From: Candidatus Xenobia bacterium
Lineage (GTDB): Bacteria; Vulcanimicrobiota; Xenobia; Xenobiales; QWHO01
NCBI GenBank assembly: GCA_045863235.1
Contig: BTUM01000004.1
Coordinates: 1 to 64,000, forward strand
Direction: 5' to 3'
Length of the DNA stretch: 64,000 nucleotides
The notes below the pieces were generated by a model, which saw only the letters and a list, made by a program, of their open reading frames with translations, was not told where the DNA came from and did not search any database. Of this stretch, positions 46,622-54,947 are shown one piece after another. A program made the position numbers and the translations under genes. The stretch's first letter is position 1; each line of letters begins with the position of its first letter.

Positions 46622-47191
46622 CTAAGGCCGAGCCAGAGCCAGCTCCGGATACAGGTTGCGATACTGCTCCCGGTGCACCAGAACCGAACTCACGAAGGCA
46701 CGGGTCTCGGGGTAGCCGATCTCATCCAGGCTCAAACGTCCGTCTGGGCCGCGCCAGCGCTCGACGTTGGACGGGCCTCCGTTGTAAGCCGCCAGGGAGC
46801 TAACCAGGTCGCCCTCGTAGCGGTCGAGCAGGGTGCGCAGGTAGCTCGTACCCAGGCGCAGGTTCAGGTCGGGGGTAGCCAGGTTGAGGGGTCCGTTCAG
46901 GCCCTGGCGGCGGGCCATCTCGTCGGCCGTGCCGGGCATCAGCTGCATCAACCCTACAGCTCCCACGGGGCTTACGGCCCGGGGCGAGAAGCGACTTTCC
47001 TGATACACGACGGCCGCCACCAGGTAGGGGTCGAGCTGGTTGGAACGGGCCTGGCGTATCAGCTCGCTGCGGTAGGCCAGGGGATAGAGACAACGCTGAA
47101 ACGAGGGGAACAGGGTGAGCAGGGGGAGCACACACAGGCCGAGCCAGAATCCGTGTCGTCTGTTGAGCAACCGCAAAAGCCGCCTTTTCAA
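46622..47191 (-). CDS. Lytic transglycosylase (SLT domain)
   Basis: QESRF, GAVGLMQLMP, AAYNGG, YPETRAFV; TTG start overlaps the coaE stop. Confidence 0.92.
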   Translation of the reverse strand: MKRRLLRLLNRRHGFWLGLCVLPLLTLFPSFQRCLYPLAYRSELIRQARSNQLDPYLVAAVVYQESRFSPRAVSPVGAVGLMQLMPGTADEMARRQGLNGPLNLATPDLNLRLGTSYLRTLLDRYEGDLVSSLAAYNGGPSNVERWRGPDGRLSLDEIGYPETRAFVSSVLVHREQYRNLYPELALARP

Positions 47192-47778
47192 GCCTCCACC
47201 CGCTGCAGCCACGTGGACTCGATCTGGCGCACCGTCTCCTCCGGCGAGCCGGAATTATCGATCACCACGTCGGCTCGCTGGAGCCGCTCGCCGGCGGACA
47301 TCTGGGCGCTTCGCCGGGCCTCGGCCTGTTGAGCTGAGAGACCGTCACGTCGCATGAGACGCTCGAGTTGCACCTCAGGACGAACGTGAACTACCCAGAC
47401 CTGATCGACATACCGTTCGCCCCCATGCTCGAGGAGGAGGGGCGCTACCAGGACCACAACGGGATGGGTACGTGAATGTTCTCCAAGCTGGTGATGAATT
47501 TCCTTCCAAATCGCAGGATGGGTAATCTGGTTCAGGCGCTCCAAGGCCTGCGGATCACCGAAAACCCTGCCAGCCAGGCCCTTGCGATCGAGCTGGCCGT
47601 CGCTTTGCAGGATGTCGGGCCCGAAAGCTTCAACCAGTTGACCCAGCACCGGACTGCCAGGCCCGGTCACCTCGCGGCTGACCTGATCGGCATCGACCAG
47701 GGCCGCGCCACGACGAGACAACTCATCGGCCACCAGGCTCTTGCCGCTGGCAATCCCCCCGGTCAGCCCGATGATCAC
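47188..47778 (-). CDS. coaE: Dephospho-CoA kinase
   Basis: IGLTGGIASGKS, DAD, LDRKGL, ITHP. Confidence 0.96.
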   Translation of the reverse strand: MIIGLTGGIASGKSLVADELSRRGAALVDADQVSREVTGPGSPVLGQLVEAFGPDILQSDGQLDRKGLAGRVFGDPQALERLNQITHPAIWKEIHHQLGEHSRTHPVVVLVAPLLLEHGGERYVDQVWVVHVRPEVQLERLMRRDGLSAQQAEARRSAQMSAGERLQRADVVIDNSGSPEETVRQIESTWLQRVEA

Positions 47779-47783
47779 CTGCG

Positions 47784-49283
47784 TCAGGCGTTCTCTTCGG
47801 CGGGTGCTTCCGACGAGGGTTCCTCGGCCGGGGCCGCGGACGCAACTTCGGGCTCCATCGCTTCAGCTTGGGGTTGGACGGTTGTCTCGACGAGCGGAAC
47901 CTCGACCACCTCAGCCACCGGAGCCGGAGCAGGCTCGGGGGCCGACTCCGACCTGGGGGCAGGTTTGGGCTTCTCCTCCTGGGCCGCGCTCTGGCCCAGC
48001 AGCTGGGCCTTCAAGGCATCCGGCAAACGATCGCCCAGAGTGAACCCGGTCGAGGAGTCTCCACCCCGATCCCGGTACTCGGCTGGCATGGCCATGCCCG
48101 GGTTCGCCTGACGCAGGGAGAGCGTGATCCGACGCGTGTCGGGGTTCACGTCCAGCACCTTCACCTTGACCTCTTGCTCGGGTTTGAGAATGTCCTGGGG
48201 CTTTCCCACCCGGAAGTCGGCCAGCTCATTGATCGGGATCAAACCCTCCACACCATCGGCAATCTCGACAAACACATAGTTCTTGACCAGCTTGCTGACC
48301 TTGCCGGGTACGATACTGCCCTCTTTGAAATTCTCTGTGATGGTCATCCACGGGTCCGGACGAGCCTGCTTGAGCGACAGCGAGATGCGCTCCTTGGACT
48401 TATTGATGCTGAGGATGCGCACATCCACCTTCTCGCCCACCCGCACCACCTCGCTGGGGTGCTTGATGCGCTTCCAGGCCAGCTCGGAAATGTGCACCAG
48501 GCCGTCCACGCCGCCCAGGTTGATGAAAGCGCCGAAGTTGGTCAGTCGAGCCACGGTTCCACTGACGATCTGGCCCTCGTCCAGGTCGCCCATGGTGCGC
48601 TCCTTCATCTTGGAGCGCTCCTCCATCAAGGCGTTCTTGCGAGAGAGCACCACCTTGCGGCGAGCCTTGTCCACCTCGACCACCTTCAGCTCGAGCACCT
48701 CACCGACGTAGTCGGACAGGTCGTGCACCGGGCGCAGGTCGACGTGGGAGGCGGGCACGAAGCCGCGCAGCCCCAGATCGACGATCAGTCCGCCTTTGAC
48801 CTGCTCGGTGCAAGTGGCCGTGAGCGTCTGGCCCGTTTCCTGGGCCTTGAGCACGCGCAGCCAGGCTGACTCGAGGTCGGCCCGCTTCTTACTCAGGATC
48901 AGGACGCCCTCGGAGTCTTCCACACGCTGGACCACCACGTCGATGGTCTCGCCCACTTTGACGACTTCCTCGGGCGGCAGGTTGCGATGGCTCAGCTGGC
49001 CAACCGGGATCTTGCCCTCGGTCTTGTAGCCCACGTCGACCAGGACGCCGTCTGCGTCGACCCTCACCACCACGCCCGACAGGAACTCTCCAGGCGCGAT
49101 CTTCTTGAACGAATCCTCATAGGCCATGGCCGAGGCCATATCGGCGCCCGGAGTGGTGCCCTCCTGGGGGGCCGGAGTCGCTGCCTCGGCGGCTTCCTCG
49201 GTGGCGGCCGGAGTTTCGGCGGCCTGCGCGACGGCTTCGGCCTCGGGCTGCTGCTCGGTGGATTCGGTCTGGGTGTTGGTCAT
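47784..49283 (-). CDS. rpsA: 30S ribosomal protein S1 (four S1 domains, acidic termini)
   Basis: VDVGYKTEG, GLRGFVPAS, FGAFINLGGVDGLVHISE; AAAGGAG RBS. Confidence 0.96.
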   Translation of the reverse strand: MTNTQTESTEQQPEAEAVAQAAETPAATEEAAEAATPAPQEGTTPGADMASAMAYEDSFKKIAPGEFLSGVVVRVDADGVLVDVGYKTEGKIPVGQLSHRNLPPEEVVKVGETIDVVVQRVEDSEGVLILSKKRADLESAWLRVLKAQETGQTLTATCTEQVKGGLIVDLGLRGFVPASHVDLRPVHDLSDYVGEVLELKVVEVDKARRKVVLSRKNALMEERSKMKERTMGDLDEGQIVSGTVARLTNFGAFINLGGVDGLVHISELAWKRIKHPSEVVRVGEKVDVRILSINKSKERISLSLKQARPDPWMTITENFKEGSIVPGKVSKLVKNYVFVEIADGVEGLIPINELADFRVGKPQDILKPEQEVKVKVLDVNPDTRRITLSLRQANPGMAMPAEYRDRGGDSSTGFTLGDRLPDALKAQLLGQSAAQEEKPKPAPRSESAPEPAPAPVAEVVEVPLVETTVQPQAEAMEPEVASAAPAEEPSSEAPAEENA

Positions 49284-49525
49284 GGCGCTGGTTGCTCCTT
49301 TCGATGTGGCTCTGCTACGACAGAGCCGGTCAGTTGTTACTGTGGTCGGCGGTGGGATTGCTGCGAAGCGTGCAGCGCTCGCCCGGGAAGTTCCCCTCGA
49401 AGAGAAAATTCGCCCCGCTTCTCGTTTTCCTGTCTAACGCGACGAAAAAATCGCGTTGGGACAAATATTCAAGCCAATTTTGCCGCTCCATTGTGCGCGA
49501 ACGACCAACCGATCTCCTGCTAGGA

Positions 49526-49700
49526 GCGCAGCCGGAAACCCCCTTGACACGGTTTTCCGGCTGCGCGACGCCCAACATGTTGTGCTAGAAGTTCGGCGCC
49601 TACAACATCTTGTGGTGGCGGAGGTTCCCTCCGACACCACAGGGGGTTTGCGGCCGGACTTCTAGCGGCGCAAACCCTTTGACAAAGTTTACCGGCCGCG
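49526..49700. other. Multi-hairpin structured intergenic element (ncRNA or rpsA leader candidate)
   Basis: Several nested or alternative inverted repeats (see findings). Confidence 0.45.
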
Positions 49701-49751: not shown

Positions 49752-49774
49752 TCCCAGCCGTCTCCAGAAAGAGG

Positions 49775-52579
49775 CTACCGACGTGCCACGGGCTCGGCCT
49801 CGATACGGCGCGGCTGAGCCCAATTGGGACCGTGCAGCACCTCGACGGCCACCGGCACATCCAGTTGCCGCACGCTCTCCATGATGCGGGCCACTTCGCG
49901 AGCCAGCGACTCCTTCTGCTTCGGCTCGATCTCGAAGATCAGCTCGTCGCGCAGTTGCATCGCCAACATTCCGGGCAGGCTACCCTCACGCTGACGATGG
50001 ACGATCTGCACCATGGCCGTCTTGAGCAGGTCGGCGGCCGAGGCCTGCACGGCTGCGCCTCGAGCAGTGCGCTCAGCTGTGTCTCGAATGTCGGAGTTGC
50101 GGCTGGTCAGTTCGGGCATCGGACGGCGTCGACTCTGCAAGCTGGTTACCCAGCCCCGAGTGCGAGCCTCCTCCAACTGCTGGTCCAGGAACCGCTTGAG
50201 CTGAGGATACTTCTCGGCGAAGCGTCCCTGAAACTGCTCCAGACGACTGGAGGCGTCCGCGGCGGTAATGCCCTGGCGCCGGGCCAGGCGGTGCACGCCG
50301 GCCAGGCTCAGGGCCACTTCGCGGGCGTCCTTCAGCACGTCCTCGTCCACCTCTGCGGGAGCCACTTCCAGGAGCTCGGAAGCCAGCTTGCGCGCGGCAT
50401 CCTCGGAACGGGTGAAGCTCTTGAGCAGACCGCTCTCCTTGGAAAGGTGGGCAGCCAGGCGCAGGTCAAGTTGGGCGTAGCGCACGCCCAGCAGAATGCG
50501 CTTGCGGTCACGCGGGATCAGCGCGCCCTTGAAGTGGGTGCGCAGCTCGTCTCGAATGCTCAGGTTGGGCAACTCTTCCACTTCAGCCAGAAGCCGGTTG
50601 AAGGTGGCGACCGCTCCCCCTACCAGGCTCGGGCCCATCCACTGGATACGCTCGGAGGAGGTGACCAGGTGGTCAGCCGAGCGCAACAGCCAGCCGTGGC
50701 GCGGGTGCACCAGCCGGGGCAGGGCTTCGAGATAATAGGCGCGCAGCTCCTTGAGCGCCCGCCAATCGCGAACCAGGTTGCCAATCTCGTGCTGCTCGGA
50801 CACCTGAACCAGCAGCTCAGGGCCGACGGTGGCGCCGTTCTTGGGCCGGTTCAGGACCTGCAGGCCCATCCGATCGAAGAGCACCTCGGTGAGGTCCTTG
50901 GGTGACTCGAGGTCGAACTTCTCGCCTGCGTAGGCGAAGATCTGGCTCTCCAGATCGCGGGTCAAGCGATCGATGTGATCGGAGAAGTCGTCCAGACGGC
51001 CCGCGTCCAGCCCGACTCCGTTCTTCTCCATCGAAGCGGCCACCCAGACCATCGGCATCTCGATCTCTTCGAACGACTCGAGCAGATCGCTCTCGGCCAG
51101 CCGGTCCTCGAGAATTCGGGCCAAGCGGCCCAGACCAAGCACACGGAGACCGGCCCAGGGGGTCAGCTCGTCGGCTGGCACCTCGGACAGGCGGCGGGCG
51201 CCAGGGCCCCGGCCGAGCAACTCGGACTCGCTGGGGATGTCCACCCCGTAGCGGCGTCCAATCTCGTCGAGCCAGAAGTTGCCTTCCACCGAATCGAGCT
51301 GGTGGGCGGCCACGGCTACGTCGAAGAAGCTGGACTGAGGCCAGTCGCCCTCCACTCCGTCGAGCAGCAGGGCCCCACGCAGGTTGTGGACGTACTTGCG
51401 ACGATCCTCGCGCTCCAAGGCGGGACGCAGGAGCTCGATAGCCGCAGCGGGCTTCATATCCGTCTTGCGGGTGCCCAGCGGGACCACCAGAGCTTGCTGC
51501 TCGTTGGCGGACACAGCCAACCCGACCAGGTCGCTGCCGCTTCCCAGCCACAGGATGGACAGCGGTCCGTCGCCTTGAGCGATGCGACCGAGCGACTCCT
51601 TGGCCTCTGCGCCCTTGGCAAAGCGGATCTCGACCGGTAGAACTTCAGCGTGGGAGCCATTCCCGTTGCCATTGCCGTTGCTATTGCCGTTGCCATTGGC
51701 CGCACCCGACTCGAGCGATTCGAGCAGCTCCTCCACCTCCAGGCGACGGAAGACGTCCTTGACGCGAGCCGGGAAGTGCAGCTTGTAGCTGAACTTCTCC
51801 CAGCAGACATCCAGCTCGAGATCGGTGCGGATGGTTGCCCGAGTCTTGAAATCGAGCGCCAGATCACGGTTCTCCGAGAGCGGGTTGCGCCACTTGGCAG
51901 GCAGCAGCTGGAGCGAGTTGAGCAGATCCTCCAGGCTGCCGTGCTGAGAGAGAAGCTTCTTGGCGGTCACCTCGCCGATACCAGGAACGCCGGTGATGTT
52001 GTCCGAGGAGTCGCCGGCCAGAGCACGCAGGTCGGCCAACTGGGCCGGGCTCAGGTTGAAGCGCTTGCGCACGAGATCATCATCGTAGACCAGCATGTCC
52101 GAGATACCGCGCCGGGTCGTGAGCACGCGCACGTTGGGGCGAACCAGTTGCAACAGGTCGAGATCACCCGAGATGATCATCACCTGCATCCCCTCTTCCG
52201 CGGCCATGCGCGAGAGGGTCCCGATGCAGTCGTCGGCCTCGTGGCCGCGGACCCGGTAGACCTGCACCCCGAAGGCGCGGATCAGATCTTCGATGAGAGG
52301 GAGCTGATGTGCCAGCTCTTCAGGCATCTCCATCCGCTGCGCATTGTAGTCTTGATAGCTGCGCACCCGCTCGGTGGGCACGCCTTTGTCGAAAGCCACC
52401 GCGACGTGCGTGGGCTTTTGCATCTGCACCAGCTTGATGAACATGTCGGCGAAACCGACCACGGCGTTCGTGGGGGTGCCAGAAGTGGTCTTGGTCGGAG
52501 GAACCGCGTAGAAAGCGCGATAGGCCAGACCGTTGCCATCAATGAGAAGCAGTTTCCTGCTGTCGGACTCCATATGCAT
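49775..52579 (-). CDS. polA: DNA polymerase I-like protein with conserved 5'-3' nuclease carboxylates and degenerate polymerase motifs
   Basis: LIDGNGLAYRAFYA, EADD, SGDLDLLQ, GDSSDN; polymerase domain reads RYAQLDLR and QLRDEL. Confidence 0.88.
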   Translation of the reverse strand: MHMESDSRKLLLIDGNGLAYRAFYAVPPTKTTSGTPTNAVVGFADMFIKLVQMQKPTHVAVAFDKGVPTERVRSYQDYNAQRMEMPEELAHQLPLIEDLIRAFGVQVYRVRGHEADDCIGTLSRMAAEEGMQVMIISGDLDLLQLVRPNVRVLTTRRGISDMLVYDDDLVRKRFNLSPAQLADLRALAGDSSDNITGVPGIGEVTAKKLLSQHGSLEDLLNSLQLLPAKWRNPLSENRDLALDFKTRATIRTDLELDVCWEKFSYKLHFPARVKDVFRRLEVEELLESLESGAANGNGNSNGNGNGNGSHAEVLPVEIRFAKGAEAKESLGRIAQGDGPLSILWLGSGSDLVGLAVSANEQQALVVPLGTRKTDMKPAAAIELLRPALEREDRRKYVHNLRGALLLDGVEGDWPQSSFFDVAVAAHQLDSVEGNFWLDEIGRRYGVDIPSESELLGRGPGARRLSEVPADELTPWAGLRVLGLGRLARILEDRLAESDLLESFEEIEMPMVWVAASMEKNGVGLDAGRLDDFSDHIDRLTRDLESQIFAYAGEKFDLESPKDLTEVLFDRMGLQVLNRPKNGATVGPELLVQVSEQHEIGNLVRDWRALKELRAYYLEALPRLVHPRHGWLLRSADHLVTSSERIQWMGPSLVGGAVATFNRLLAEVEELPNLSIRDELRTHFKGALIPRDRKRILLGVRYAQLDLRLAAHLSKESGLLKSFTRSEDAARKLASELLEVAPAEVDEDVLKDAREVALSLAGVHRLARRQGITAADASSRLEQFQGRFAEKYPQLKRFLDQQLEEARTRGWVTSLQSRRRPMPELTSRNSDIRDTAERTARGAAVQASAADLLKTAMVQIVHRQREGSLPGMLAMQLRDELIFEIEPKQKESLAREVARIMESVRQLDVPVAVEVLHGPNWAQPRRIEAEPVARR

Positions 52580-52728
52580 TTGATTCTCCCATAGCTCACC
52601 CGCGTGTTCTGACGCTTCTCGATTACAGAGCGTCAGACTCCGGCGGGACGGCAAAGGCCCGCGGTGAGACCCCCCACACACGGGCCAGGGCGCAATCTCA
52701 ATAAATTGCGTGCCGGGCGATATTTGCG

Positions 52729-52757
52729 ATTGTAGATTCTGACCTGGACCCGGACAA
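52729..52757 (-). promoter_or_regulatory. Sigma70 promoter of polA-like gene
   Basis: Minus strand TTGTCC-N17-TACAAT; palindrome CGCAAT-N8-ATTGCG downstream at 52691-52710. Confidence 0.6.
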
Positions 52758-52889: not shown

Positions 52890-54947
52890 TCAGGAAGCCG
52901 GGGCGACCATGGTTTCTTGGTTCTCCAGGACCAGGGCGTCGGCCACGATCTCGGCGATGTCGCGGGTATCGATCTCGCCCGCCAGATCCTTGCGTCCCAG
53001 GGCATCGCTCATCATCGTCAGACAGAACGGGCAAGCCGAGGCGATCATCTTGGGCTTCTTGGGCAGATCGAGGGCGTCTTGCAGGCGCAGGTCGTTGACC
53101 TTCACCCCGTGCTCCTCCATCCACATCCGCCCGCCGCCGGCGCCACAGCAACGACCTCTCTCGCGGGACAACTCCATCTCCTCCAGGCGCACGCCCGTGG
53201 CCGCCAGAACCTCCCGGGGCTGCTCATAGATGTCGTTGTAGCGCCCGAGATAGCAAGAGTCGTGATAGGTGGCCTCGGTAGGCTCGCCAAAGCGCACTTT
53301 GATTCTGCCTTCCTTCATCAGGTCCTGGATCAGCTGGGAGTGATGCTGCACGACGTAGTCCCCGCCAAACTGGGGATACTCGTTCTTGATGGTGTTGAAG
53401 CAGTGGGGGCAGGCCGCCACCACACGCTTGACGTTGTAGCGGTTCATGGTCTCGACGTTCTGCTGGGCCAGCACCTGGTACAGAAACTCGTTGCCGATGC
53501 GGCGGGCGGGATCGCCGCTGCAGCCCTCCTCCTTGCCCAGAATGGCGAATTTCAAGCCAGCCGCCCGCATGATCTTGACCAGGGCCATGCTGACCTTCTT
53601 GTTACGCTCATCGAACGATCCAGCGCATCCCACCCAGTAGAGCACGTCAATCTCTCCGGGCTCGTCGGCCATCTCCTTGACCTCGAGGTCCTTGGCCCAG
53701 TCGGCCCGCTGCGAAAAGCCGATCCCCCAGGGATTGGAGTTGTTCTCCATGTTCTTGAAAGCTCGCTGCACCTCTTGCGGGAAGCGGCCTTCCACCTGGA
53801 CCAGGTAGCGACGCATGTCGACGATCTCTTGCACGTACTCGATGAAGACCGGACAGGCCTGCTCACAAGCGCGGCAGGTGGTGCAGGCGAAGAGAGCCTC
53901 TTCCGACACGGCCGGTATCGAATTCTGCAGCACCCTCAGCTCCTGGGTGGGCTCCTTGCCAGCCCGCTTGTCGATGACTCCCTGCCCGTGCTCGACCAGC
54001 TCCTCGCGCAGCTGCTCGGAGATCTTCTTGGGGTGGAGAGGTTTTTCGCTGGCAAAGGCCGGGCAGACCGAGGTGCAGCGCCCGCACTCGGTGCACGAGA
54101 GCCAGTCGTGGTAATTCTTCCAGGTCATCTGGTCGAGAGTGGAGGTTCCGTATTCCTCGTTCTCCAGGTCGAGCTTGGTCAGCTCGCCGTAAGGGCGTTT
54201 CTTGTTGAAGTAGACGTTGGGGATGCCGGTGATGATGTGGAGGTGTTTGGAGTAAGGGAGGTAGGCTCCGAAGCCGAGCACCAGAGCCAGATTGATCCAC
54301 CAGGACACCTCGCGAATCGTGCTCAGGGTGGCCGGGTCTCCTCCCGCCACGCCGGCAAAGCTGGCGTAGAGATTGGAGGTAATGGGGTGGGTGCGCATCA
54401 TCAGGGTGTATTCCTCGGGCGTGAGGGAGGACATCAAGTGCACGCCCACGTCGGCCGCTCCCCAGACCAGCTCCACTACCATCAAACTCCAGATCAGCGC
54501 GAGGATGAGCAGAGCGTCGCCGGAAGGCTCGGGGAACTTGGGCCGAATCACCACCCGGCGCCAGACCGCCATGAAGACGCCGACCATGACCAGCACGATG
54601 AAGCACTCTTTGATGATGGAGTAGAAGGCGCCCAGGGGCTCGTTCACGGCCAGCAGCGGCAGATTGAACTCAGGACCGAAGAAACCTCGCAGGATCAAGG
54701 TCGAATTGGCGATGACCAGAACGCAGAAACCCCAGAAGATCAGGGCGTGGAGGATACCTCCGTAGGCCCTCTTGAGCAGGCGCTTCTGGCCGAAAGCGAA
54801 CACGAGCACATCGGCGATCCGCTCACCGGGTTTGTCAAAGCGGTTGTCAGGCTTGCCCGCCTTGATGAAGCGATACAGCTTCAGCGCCTGACGAAGAAAC
54901 AGAGTAGCGGCAACCGCCACCATCAGGGTCGATACTAAGATTCGCAT
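52890..54947 (-). CDS. Membrane Fe-S oxidoreductase, FadF/heterodisulfide-reductase-related
   Basis: TM N-terminus, CTECGRCTSVCP and CTTCRACEQACP, CCG domains (YHDSCYLGR, CCGAGGG, CPFC). Confidence 0.92.
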   Translation of the reverse strand: MRILVSTLMVAVAATLFLRQALKLYRFIKAGKPDNRFDKPGERIADVLVFAFGQKRLLKRAYGGILHALIFWGFCVLVIANSTLILRGFFGPEFNLPLLAVNEPLGAFYSIIKECFIVLVMVGVFMAVWRRVVIRPKFPEPSGDALLILALIWSLMVVELVWGAADVGVHLMSSLTPEEYTLMMRTHPITSNLYASFAGVAGGDPATLSTIREVSWWINLALVLGFGAYLPYSKHLHIITGIPNVYFNKKRPYGELTKLDLENEEYGTSTLDQMTWKNYHDWLSCTECGRCTSVCPAFASEKPLHPKKISEQLREELVEHGQGVIDKRAGKEPTQELRVLQNSIPAVSEEALFACTTCRACEQACPVFIEYVQEIVDMRRYLVQVEGRFPQEVQRAFKNMENNSNPWGIGFSQRADWAKDLEVKEMADEPGEIDVLYWVGCAGSFDERNKKVSMALVKIMRAAGLKFAILGKEEGCSGDPARRIGNEFLYQVLAQQNVETMNRYNVKRVVAACPHCFNTIKNEYPQFGGDYVVQHHSQLIQDLMKEGRIKVRFGEPTEATYHDSCYLGRYNDIYEQPREVLAATGVRLEEMELSRERGRCCGAGGGRMWMEEHGVKVNDLRLQDALDLPKKPKMIASACPFCLTMMSDALGRKDLAGEIDTRDIAEIVADALVLENQETMVAPAS

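Follow-up and report, generated by a model that had tools for sequence, protein, structure and literature searches.

An apparently polymerase-dead DNA polymerase I retained across an order of Candidatus Eremiobacterota/Vulcanimicrobiota

DNA polymerase I of bacteria (Pol I or PolA1, as in E. coli, Taq, Bst and M. smegmatis Pol1) is almost universally present, and in surveys its polymerase site counts as strictly conserved. In the accessible parts of the papers cited here, catalytic residues are conserved in every PolA subfamily (Czernecki et al., PMC10201439), and polymerase-dead members are known in PolX (PMC9226535) and in the Y and B families. The corresponding part of Timinskas et al. (PMC12926913) describes only exonuclease-dead Pol I, calls the G3 group of family B polymerases (PolB) uncharacterised and leaves the present phylum unmentioned. 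The gene considered here is a polA orthologue encoding 934 amino acids (49775..52579, minus strand) in a 64,000-nucleotide stretch of DNA, the window, from a Candidatus Xenobia bacterium (assembly GCA_045863235.1, contig BTUM01000004.1, positions 1 to 64,000). The Pol I of the whole order is almost certainly polymerase-dead, to judge by its sequences; this class is real, and no earlier description of a polymerase-dead Pol I class was found in the literature searched, mostly open papers.

The protein shares with PolA1 the three-domain layout, the fold and the ancestral locus, and its 3'-5' exonuclease is vestigial, like that of roughly half of Pol I proteins (PMC12926913). It differs from PolA1 in a missing motif A aspartate, a broken O helix, an 18-residue insertion and a Lys-to-Asn exchange in the flap endonuclease (FEN) domain. 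Noncanonical PolX (Prostova et al., PMC9226535) likewise have polymerase and deoxynucleoside triphosphate (dNTP) sites substituted or deleted and a fused nuclease domain kept, but they belong to another family and fold and are accessory, whereas two of the three families of the order have no Pol I orthologue other than the dead one. With the stand-alone FENs FenA/YpcP and E. coli ExoIX the protein shares the FEN fold (Z 30-31) and, in family f3, the eroded second metal site of ExoIX; unlike them, it has a fused dead Klenow part of 600 residues, lacks the conserved lysine and is accompanied by a canonical stand-alone FEN. ImuB/iPolY and the inactive C-terminal half of Pol epsilon are further inactive polymerases that selection maintains next to an active one of a different type (PMC12926913, PMC7544198), but the dead Pol I shows no partner linkage and is retained without PolB in one genus, g4. 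An order with a dead yet retained Pol I would show that a function of Pol I is separable from synthesis, and it exposes an annotation error, the dead genes being labelled DNA polymerase I or hypothetical.

Degeneration of the polymerase domain

The order was sampled with 40 genomes of three families (f1, n = 5; f2, n = 16; f3, n = 19), from which 36 polA genes were aligned in full and four fragments were read at the motifs. In the protein of the window, the polymerase-fold domain (thumb, palm and fingers; residues 481-920; 49820..51139, minus strand, as for every polA feature below) is catalytically degenerate. The motif A sequence RYAQLDLR begins at residue 700, and Arg700 (codon CGC, 50480..50482) aligns with Taq D610 and M. 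smegmatis D684, positions being counted along HMMER alignments; the Asp-to-Arg change and its codon are thus as given in the initial annotation, which had been made from this DNA alone. Motif B (O helix, 50297..50335), described there as unrecognisable, has lost its Arg, Tyr and aromatic residues together with three positions, a deletion shared by 36/36 orthologues; relative to the pattern R-x3-K-x3-F/Y-G-x2-Y-G, K and Y are gone. Motif C (49943..49957) does read QLRDE. This protein retains both carboxylates of the motif, D878 and E879; position 878 is Asp in 21/36 and Asn in 15/36 orthologues, and the His is lost in all. The TGRLSS of motif 2, reported as absent, is instead remodelled: its arginine (R644) is kept in 36/36 and precedes an insertion of 18 residues that reaches R662 (R644 to R662, 50594..50650). 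The insertion is predicted to be helical, residues 640-668 being modelled as helices by AlphaFold with a predicted local distance difference test (pLDDT) score of 55-90. A tandem duplication of motif 2 as the source of the insertion is a weak proposal; R644 and R662 lie 18 residues apart, but in f1/f2 the rank of the second copy among ~900 windows is just 3-31, and in f3 it is lower.

The DNA and dNTP contacts listed for M. smegmatis Pol1 (PMC7102940) were mapped by hand via the alignment. With M. smegmatis numbering first, the dNTP contacts H713 and R733 are replaced by A729 and L749, the N and F contacts of motif B are deleted in 36/36, and the equivalent of K737 is mostly hydrophobic. The template and primer contacts R820 (R837), R646 (R644) and K582 (K580) are invariant in 36/36. 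The template-gripping R837 lies in a conserved fingers segment, SRN..R...ER.AR (50060..50104), and K580 in the thumb tip RPKNG (50834..50848), where R578, P579 and K580 are all invariant in 36/36. The dead domain keeps 22 of the 89 columns that are near-invariant across 30 intact Pol I. As judged from these residues, the catalytic metal and the incoming dNTP are not bindable in the canonical way. Weak or non-canonical polymerase activity through D705, which sits at the motif A Glu position, or through the retained D878 and E879 is extremely improbable: position 705 is acidic in only 10/36 orthologues, D878 is Asn in the 15 noted above, and the dNTP-binding helix is shortened throughout. No compensating acid is conserved near motif A across the clade.

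The motif A Asp is present in 0/40 genomes of the order; five have Glu, all of them with the motif C Asn. The insertion and the motif B deletion occur together in 36/36. In a protein search, 42/42 close homologues lack the motif A Asp and share both traits, and the next hits, 78/78, are canonical at motifs A and C (best 120 of 338 hits). With a profile of the dead region, eight clusters (50% identity) are dead and the 142 others among the best 150 look canonical; 127 of these match all four patterns, and in the remaining 15, which fail one or two strict patterns, the printed stretches contain no insertion. Intact Pol I is lacking in f1 (5/5) and f3 (19/19). In f2, dead polA is kept in 16/16 genomes and an intact Pol I is found elsewhere in 15/16; the latter branches away from the vertical polA of the phylum and is therefore considered imported. 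Some genomes of genus g4 carry a further intact Pol I (L024 in G035, G007:C3, G023:C70), and the extra Pol I of G035 groups with family f15 in the tree, a second import.

The Klenow part is full-length in 36/36 orthologues (592-623 amino acids). For residues 481-920, the ratio of nonsynonymous to synonymous substitution (dN/dS) is 0.015-0.167 in 14/16 dead pairs, the other two being saturated, compared with 0.063-0.147 in six pairs of intact Pol I; these pairwise Nei-Gojobori values are rough, several dS exceeding 1. Length and dN/dS exclude a pseudogene. Pol I appears to have turned into a pseudo-polymerase in the ancestor of the order, and it is kept whole under purifying selection, in line with the pseudo-polymerase first proposed.

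The frame of the window's gene is, as first described, unbroken over 934 residues, with the FEN, 3'-5' exonuclease-like and family A polymerase architecture of Pol I orthologues. Pfam places the 5'-3' exonuclease at residues 9-266 and DNA_pol_A at 529-921; the protein scores below the two curated cut-offs for Pol I (636 against 720 and 584 against 600 bits). The gene is the single PF00476 match in its own genome (97.6% complete), and a second polA, raised in the initial annotation as something to look for, is not present there. Both folds, FEN and Klenow, are retained in the AlphaFold model (mean pLDDT 86.6): residues 314-924 match Bst Pol I (Klenow) with Z 29.9 and a root-mean-square deviation (rmsd) of 3.8 over 557 residues, and the FEN domain matches FenA with Z 31 and rmsd 2.3. 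Between the FEN and polymerase-fold domains lie an Asn-Gly low-complexity linker (residues 295-309; 51653..51697), genus-specific and variable in length, and a 3'-5' exonuclease domain that is vestigial (residues 315-480; 51140..51637), whose proofreading motif is missing here and in intact relatives too.

Downstream of polA lie its ancestral neighbours rpsA (ribosomal protein S1; 47784..49283, minus strand) and coaE (dephospho-CoA kinase; 47188..47778, minus strand). The order polA-rpsA-coaE is common to this locus and five intact Pol I loci of the phylum, which marks the gene as the housekeeping copy. In the nuclease-domain tree, dead Pol I is sister to intact class members (support 88/86), and the class-level relatives G040, G041 and G043 have intact Pol I. 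On synteny and phylogeny, this Ca. Eremiobacterota/Vulcanimicrobiota order inherited the gene vertically as its housekeeping Pol I; a mobile or prophage origin is ruled out by synteny. Sequencing error is excluded by the presence of the same motif in genomes of the same genus and in the contig of an independent run, which over 49755-51981 differs at one position, 51203.

The 5' nuclease domain and stand-alone FENs

The 5' nuclease domain (residues 8-290; 51710..52558) keeps all nine carboxylates in this protein, and the reading YNAQR for its Tyr-Lys-x-x-Arg motif holds, with Lys replaced by Asn and Arg kept. Asn79 (52343..52345) occupies the position of the conserved FEN lysine (T5 Lys83, FenA Lys76); it is Asn in 35/35 orthologues and Lys in 28/28 intact Pol I. 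Of the first-site residues, D14, D64, D116, D117 and D139 are invariant in 35/35, and E114 is kept in 29/35, with Gln in 6/35. At the second site, D190 is kept in 36/36 and D141 and D193 in 21/36 and 13/36, with Gly or Glu at 141 in 15/36 and Gln or Glu at 193 in 23/36; the second metal site is eroding in family f3.

A further 5'-nuclease match is present in 24/24 f1/f3 genomes and 15/16 f2 genomes, and the lysine is kept in all 12 stand-alone FENs that were read. In the genome of the window, one stand-alone FEN (C62:23320-24246, minus strand) lies directly downstream of a tRNA-like gene, judged by eye; a second, with the motif EAEDVI, lies two genes from ligD (C2:88356-89222 and 90477-92975). 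Given Lys79Asn, the second-site losses and the further 5'-nuclease genes, the pseudo-Pol I is probably an attenuated nuclease and not the sole FEN of the cell. Retention as a flap nuclease, one of the two roles first suggested, is therefore not enough to account for the protein.

In one alternative, both active sites are off or repurposed and the protein is a non-catalytic factor binding DNA or RNA structures, with a new role beyond both intact Pol I and stand-alone FENs. Lys79Asn and the D141, D193 and E114 substitutions would fit this, as would the new invariant residues with the insertion and the persistence of the gene in all 16 f2 genomes, with an imported intact Pol I in 15 of them and a stand-alone FEN likewise in 15. 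Against it stand the five invariant first-site aspartates and D190, and the case of ExoIX, where the first site by itself suffices for flap cleavage and the position of D141 is likewise Gly (PMC3783174); a purely non-catalytic role is distinctly unlikely on balance. It is less likely still that the dead domain is a passive appendage needed only for folding or stability of the fused nuclease. The nuclease is indeed the most conserved part (62% vs 33% identity for the dead domain) and mostly has the lowest dN/dS, but the stand-alone FENs show that such a domain needs no partner, the 600 extra residues persist in 36/36 with invariant surface Arg/Lys and insertion, and dN/dS of the dead domain equals that of active Pol I.

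PolB and the division of Pol I functions

The polymerase set of the window's genome comprises DnaE, DnaE2, DinB, PolX, LigD and PolB (gene at C27:14187-16469), and only PolB tracks the loss of Pol I. Among 131 genomes of the phylum at least 88% complete, with absence of Pol I defined as no match above 400 bits, PolB is found in 21 of the 22 genomes without Pol I; in the remaining one, G018, the gene is truncated by the end of its contig. Of the 109 other genomes, most of them classed by score and 30 with intact proteins read at the motifs, 19 have PolB: 8/13 of f2, G041, G071 and 9/9 of f20 (one of the nine, G125, counted only). No statistic is given, since 67 of the 109 come from one family. 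The PolB polymerase motifs (E-x-DTDG, DxxSLYPS, KxxxNSFYG) are intact in 21/21 proteins of ~750 amino acids. The glutamate in motif C before DTDG marks the G3/Pol-epsilon-N clade of bacterial PolB, to which the accessible text of Kazlauskas et al. (PMC7544198) assigns no cellular role; the order's PolB has this glutamate and is called 'G3-like' on that basis, the assignment being by motif and not by a tree with reference G3 sequences. PolB homologues occur in many phyla. The PolB tree follows the genera with dead polA, and its gene has no conserved neighbours across the order and is unlinked to polA. No conserved beta-clamp motif was found within the last 45 residues of PolB, the only part searched.

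In genus g3, with genomes of 2.2-2.9 Mb, PolX and PolY are each found in 0/10, and five genomes tested have one DnaE each and no match to LigD-Pol or AEP. PolX, PolY, LigD-Pol and AEP are thus rejected as general substitutes, and no polymerase other than PolB was found beside DnaE, so that this genus allows a direct test of which enzyme fills Okazaki gaps in the absence of Pol I. Four of the five g3 genomes (G006, G008, G010, G012, G016) also have a short separate frame of 172-201 amino acids upstream of dnaE; it weakly matches Pol III alpha and lies ~1.1-1.2 kb away from the dnaE match.

The initial annotation left gap filling to another enzyme, and G3-like PolB is now the specific candidate; that it fills gaps in place of Pol I is fairly likely on gene content. 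This would be the first testable role, within the literature searched, for the uncharacterised G3 PolB, a bacterial relative of Pol epsilon. Alternatively, the replicative DnaE holoenzyme may fill primer gaps while PolB serves repair or lesion bypass and was co-inherited by chance. Bacteria are viable without Pol I polymerase if the 5' nuclease remains (PMC12926913), a review proposes gap filling by PolC in B. subtilis (PMC13220808), and PolB stands beside intact Pol I in the 19 of 109 genomes given above, with few independent origins. This alternative is nevertheless rather unlikely, though far from negligible: PolB occurs in every genome without intact Pol I, including the small g3 genomes that lack PolX and PolY, and is missing in one genus of the order, g4 (0/6; 0/5 by profile), whose only alternative is an imported intact Pol I.

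As far as sequences tell, genomes with dead Pol I also encode a stand-alone flap nuclease, plus a G3-like PolB or an imported intact Pol I. In the explanation preferred here, to which about an even chance is given as a whole, the three jobs of Pol I would be divided among separate proteins. PolB would fill primer and repair gaps, a large share of the flaps would be cut by the stand-alone FEN, and the pseudo-Pol I would persist as a junction-binding protein at nicks or flaps. Its dead Klenow part would grip the template and primer end and present both to its own attenuated, first-metal-site 5' nuclease; this positioning role is held a shade less firmly than the explanation as a whole. M. smegmatis Pol1 retains its 5' exonuclease activity after mutation of both polymerase Asp (PMC7102940). 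The dead domain might instead be a scaffold recruiting the G3-like PolB, as ImuB does for DnaE2. Co-occurrence and the matching trees of both genes would fit recruitment, but g4 keeps the dead domain without PolB (dN/dS 0.036-0.056) and polA and polB are unlinked, which makes it very improbable; a predicted complex of PolB 340-755 with pseudo-Pol I 400-925 scored 0.00 and counts neither way. The retention of dead polA in 16/16 f2 genomes and its selection in g4 indicate a job that intact Pol I does not replace and that does not depend on PolB, and this leaves room for a new non-catalytic role beside the proposed division of labour.

Several results weigh against this division. Three thumb contacts are acidic in the clade (N558 -> D556, Q564 -> D562, R615 -> E611), which probably weakens canonical duplex binding; the DNA-binding scaffold first suggested is thus only partly supported. 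By analogy, Lys79Asn may cripple the nuclease, the conserved lysine having a 1000-fold effect in T5 FEN and a ~3- to 5-fold effect in FenA (PMC5934675), and the losses at D141 and D193 correspond to ones that abolish the activity of FenA, which needs all three metals. Over long times, constraint on the dead domain has relaxed: its between-family identity is 33% vs 62% for the nuclease, compared with 47% for the polymerase part and 44% for the nuclease of intact Pol I (five representatives in each set). In G026 the 5' part of polA lies in a separate frame. PolB is not sufficient for the loss, being carried by 11/96 genomes with intact Pol I only; its association with the loss comes from kin that are not independent, with one or two origins only; and its proofreading motifs are eroded in the order, which is odd for an accurate gap filler.

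A second class also combines a degenerate Pol I with PolB in 4/4 genomes (G049, G055, G060, G061; L065-L067, L104-L107). Its Pol I lesions differ from those of the order and include no insertion; in G049 the motif A Asp is kept and the motif C Asp is Glu. Unlike in the order, the PolB proofreading motifs are intact (3/3). In the three genomes tested no stand-alone FEN was found and the Pol I nuclease is canonical, and the class is a useful internal control. The full-length tree joins the two groups (97) and the nuclease tree separates them; the RpsA tree leaves one against two origins undecided (approximately unbiased test, p-AU 0.43). Two origins are favoured by the difference in lesions and by the class to which the genomes are assigned. 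More speculatively, and with rather less confidence than in the division itself, G3 PolB may have displaced the Pol I polymerase in this phylum, possibly twice, giving an archaeal- or eukaryote-like lagging-strand maturation with a B-family polymerase and a separate FEN; the old Pol I would meanwhile have been rebuilt, with a palm insertion, as a dedicated non-polymerising junction-binding factor that even imported intact Pol I cannot replace.

Upstream and intergenic elements of the polA locus

Upstream of polA, the good promoter of the initial annotation is found as a sigma-70-like match, TTGTCC-17-TACAAT (52729..52757, minus strand), a consensus match only, with one found vs 0.2 +/- 0.4 expected by chance. 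RNA-library contigs from four runs cover polA, although such contigs cannot show transcription. The leader of 150 nucleotides (52580-52730, minus strand) has three predicted hairpins (z -3.7), the first, a short way downstream of the -10 box, being palindromic and the third lying immediately ahead of the polA ribosome-binding site. A crude look for palindromes gave no operator shared by the upstream regions of polA, polB and damage genes, and no Rfam or tRNA match lies near polA. A gene for an Fe-S/CCG oxidoreductase (52890-54947, minus strand) precedes polA here and in 17/18 other f1/f2 loci tested, the single miss being cut by the contig, and it is upstream of polA in no f3 locus.

Between polA and rpsA, positions 49516-49666 hold a dispersed repeat of 150 bp with two long hairpins and no Rfam match, of which the genome contains 18 near-full copies and 110 blast hits. 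A shorter form of the repeat, in which 49573-49639 is skipped, appears in two RNA-library contigs.

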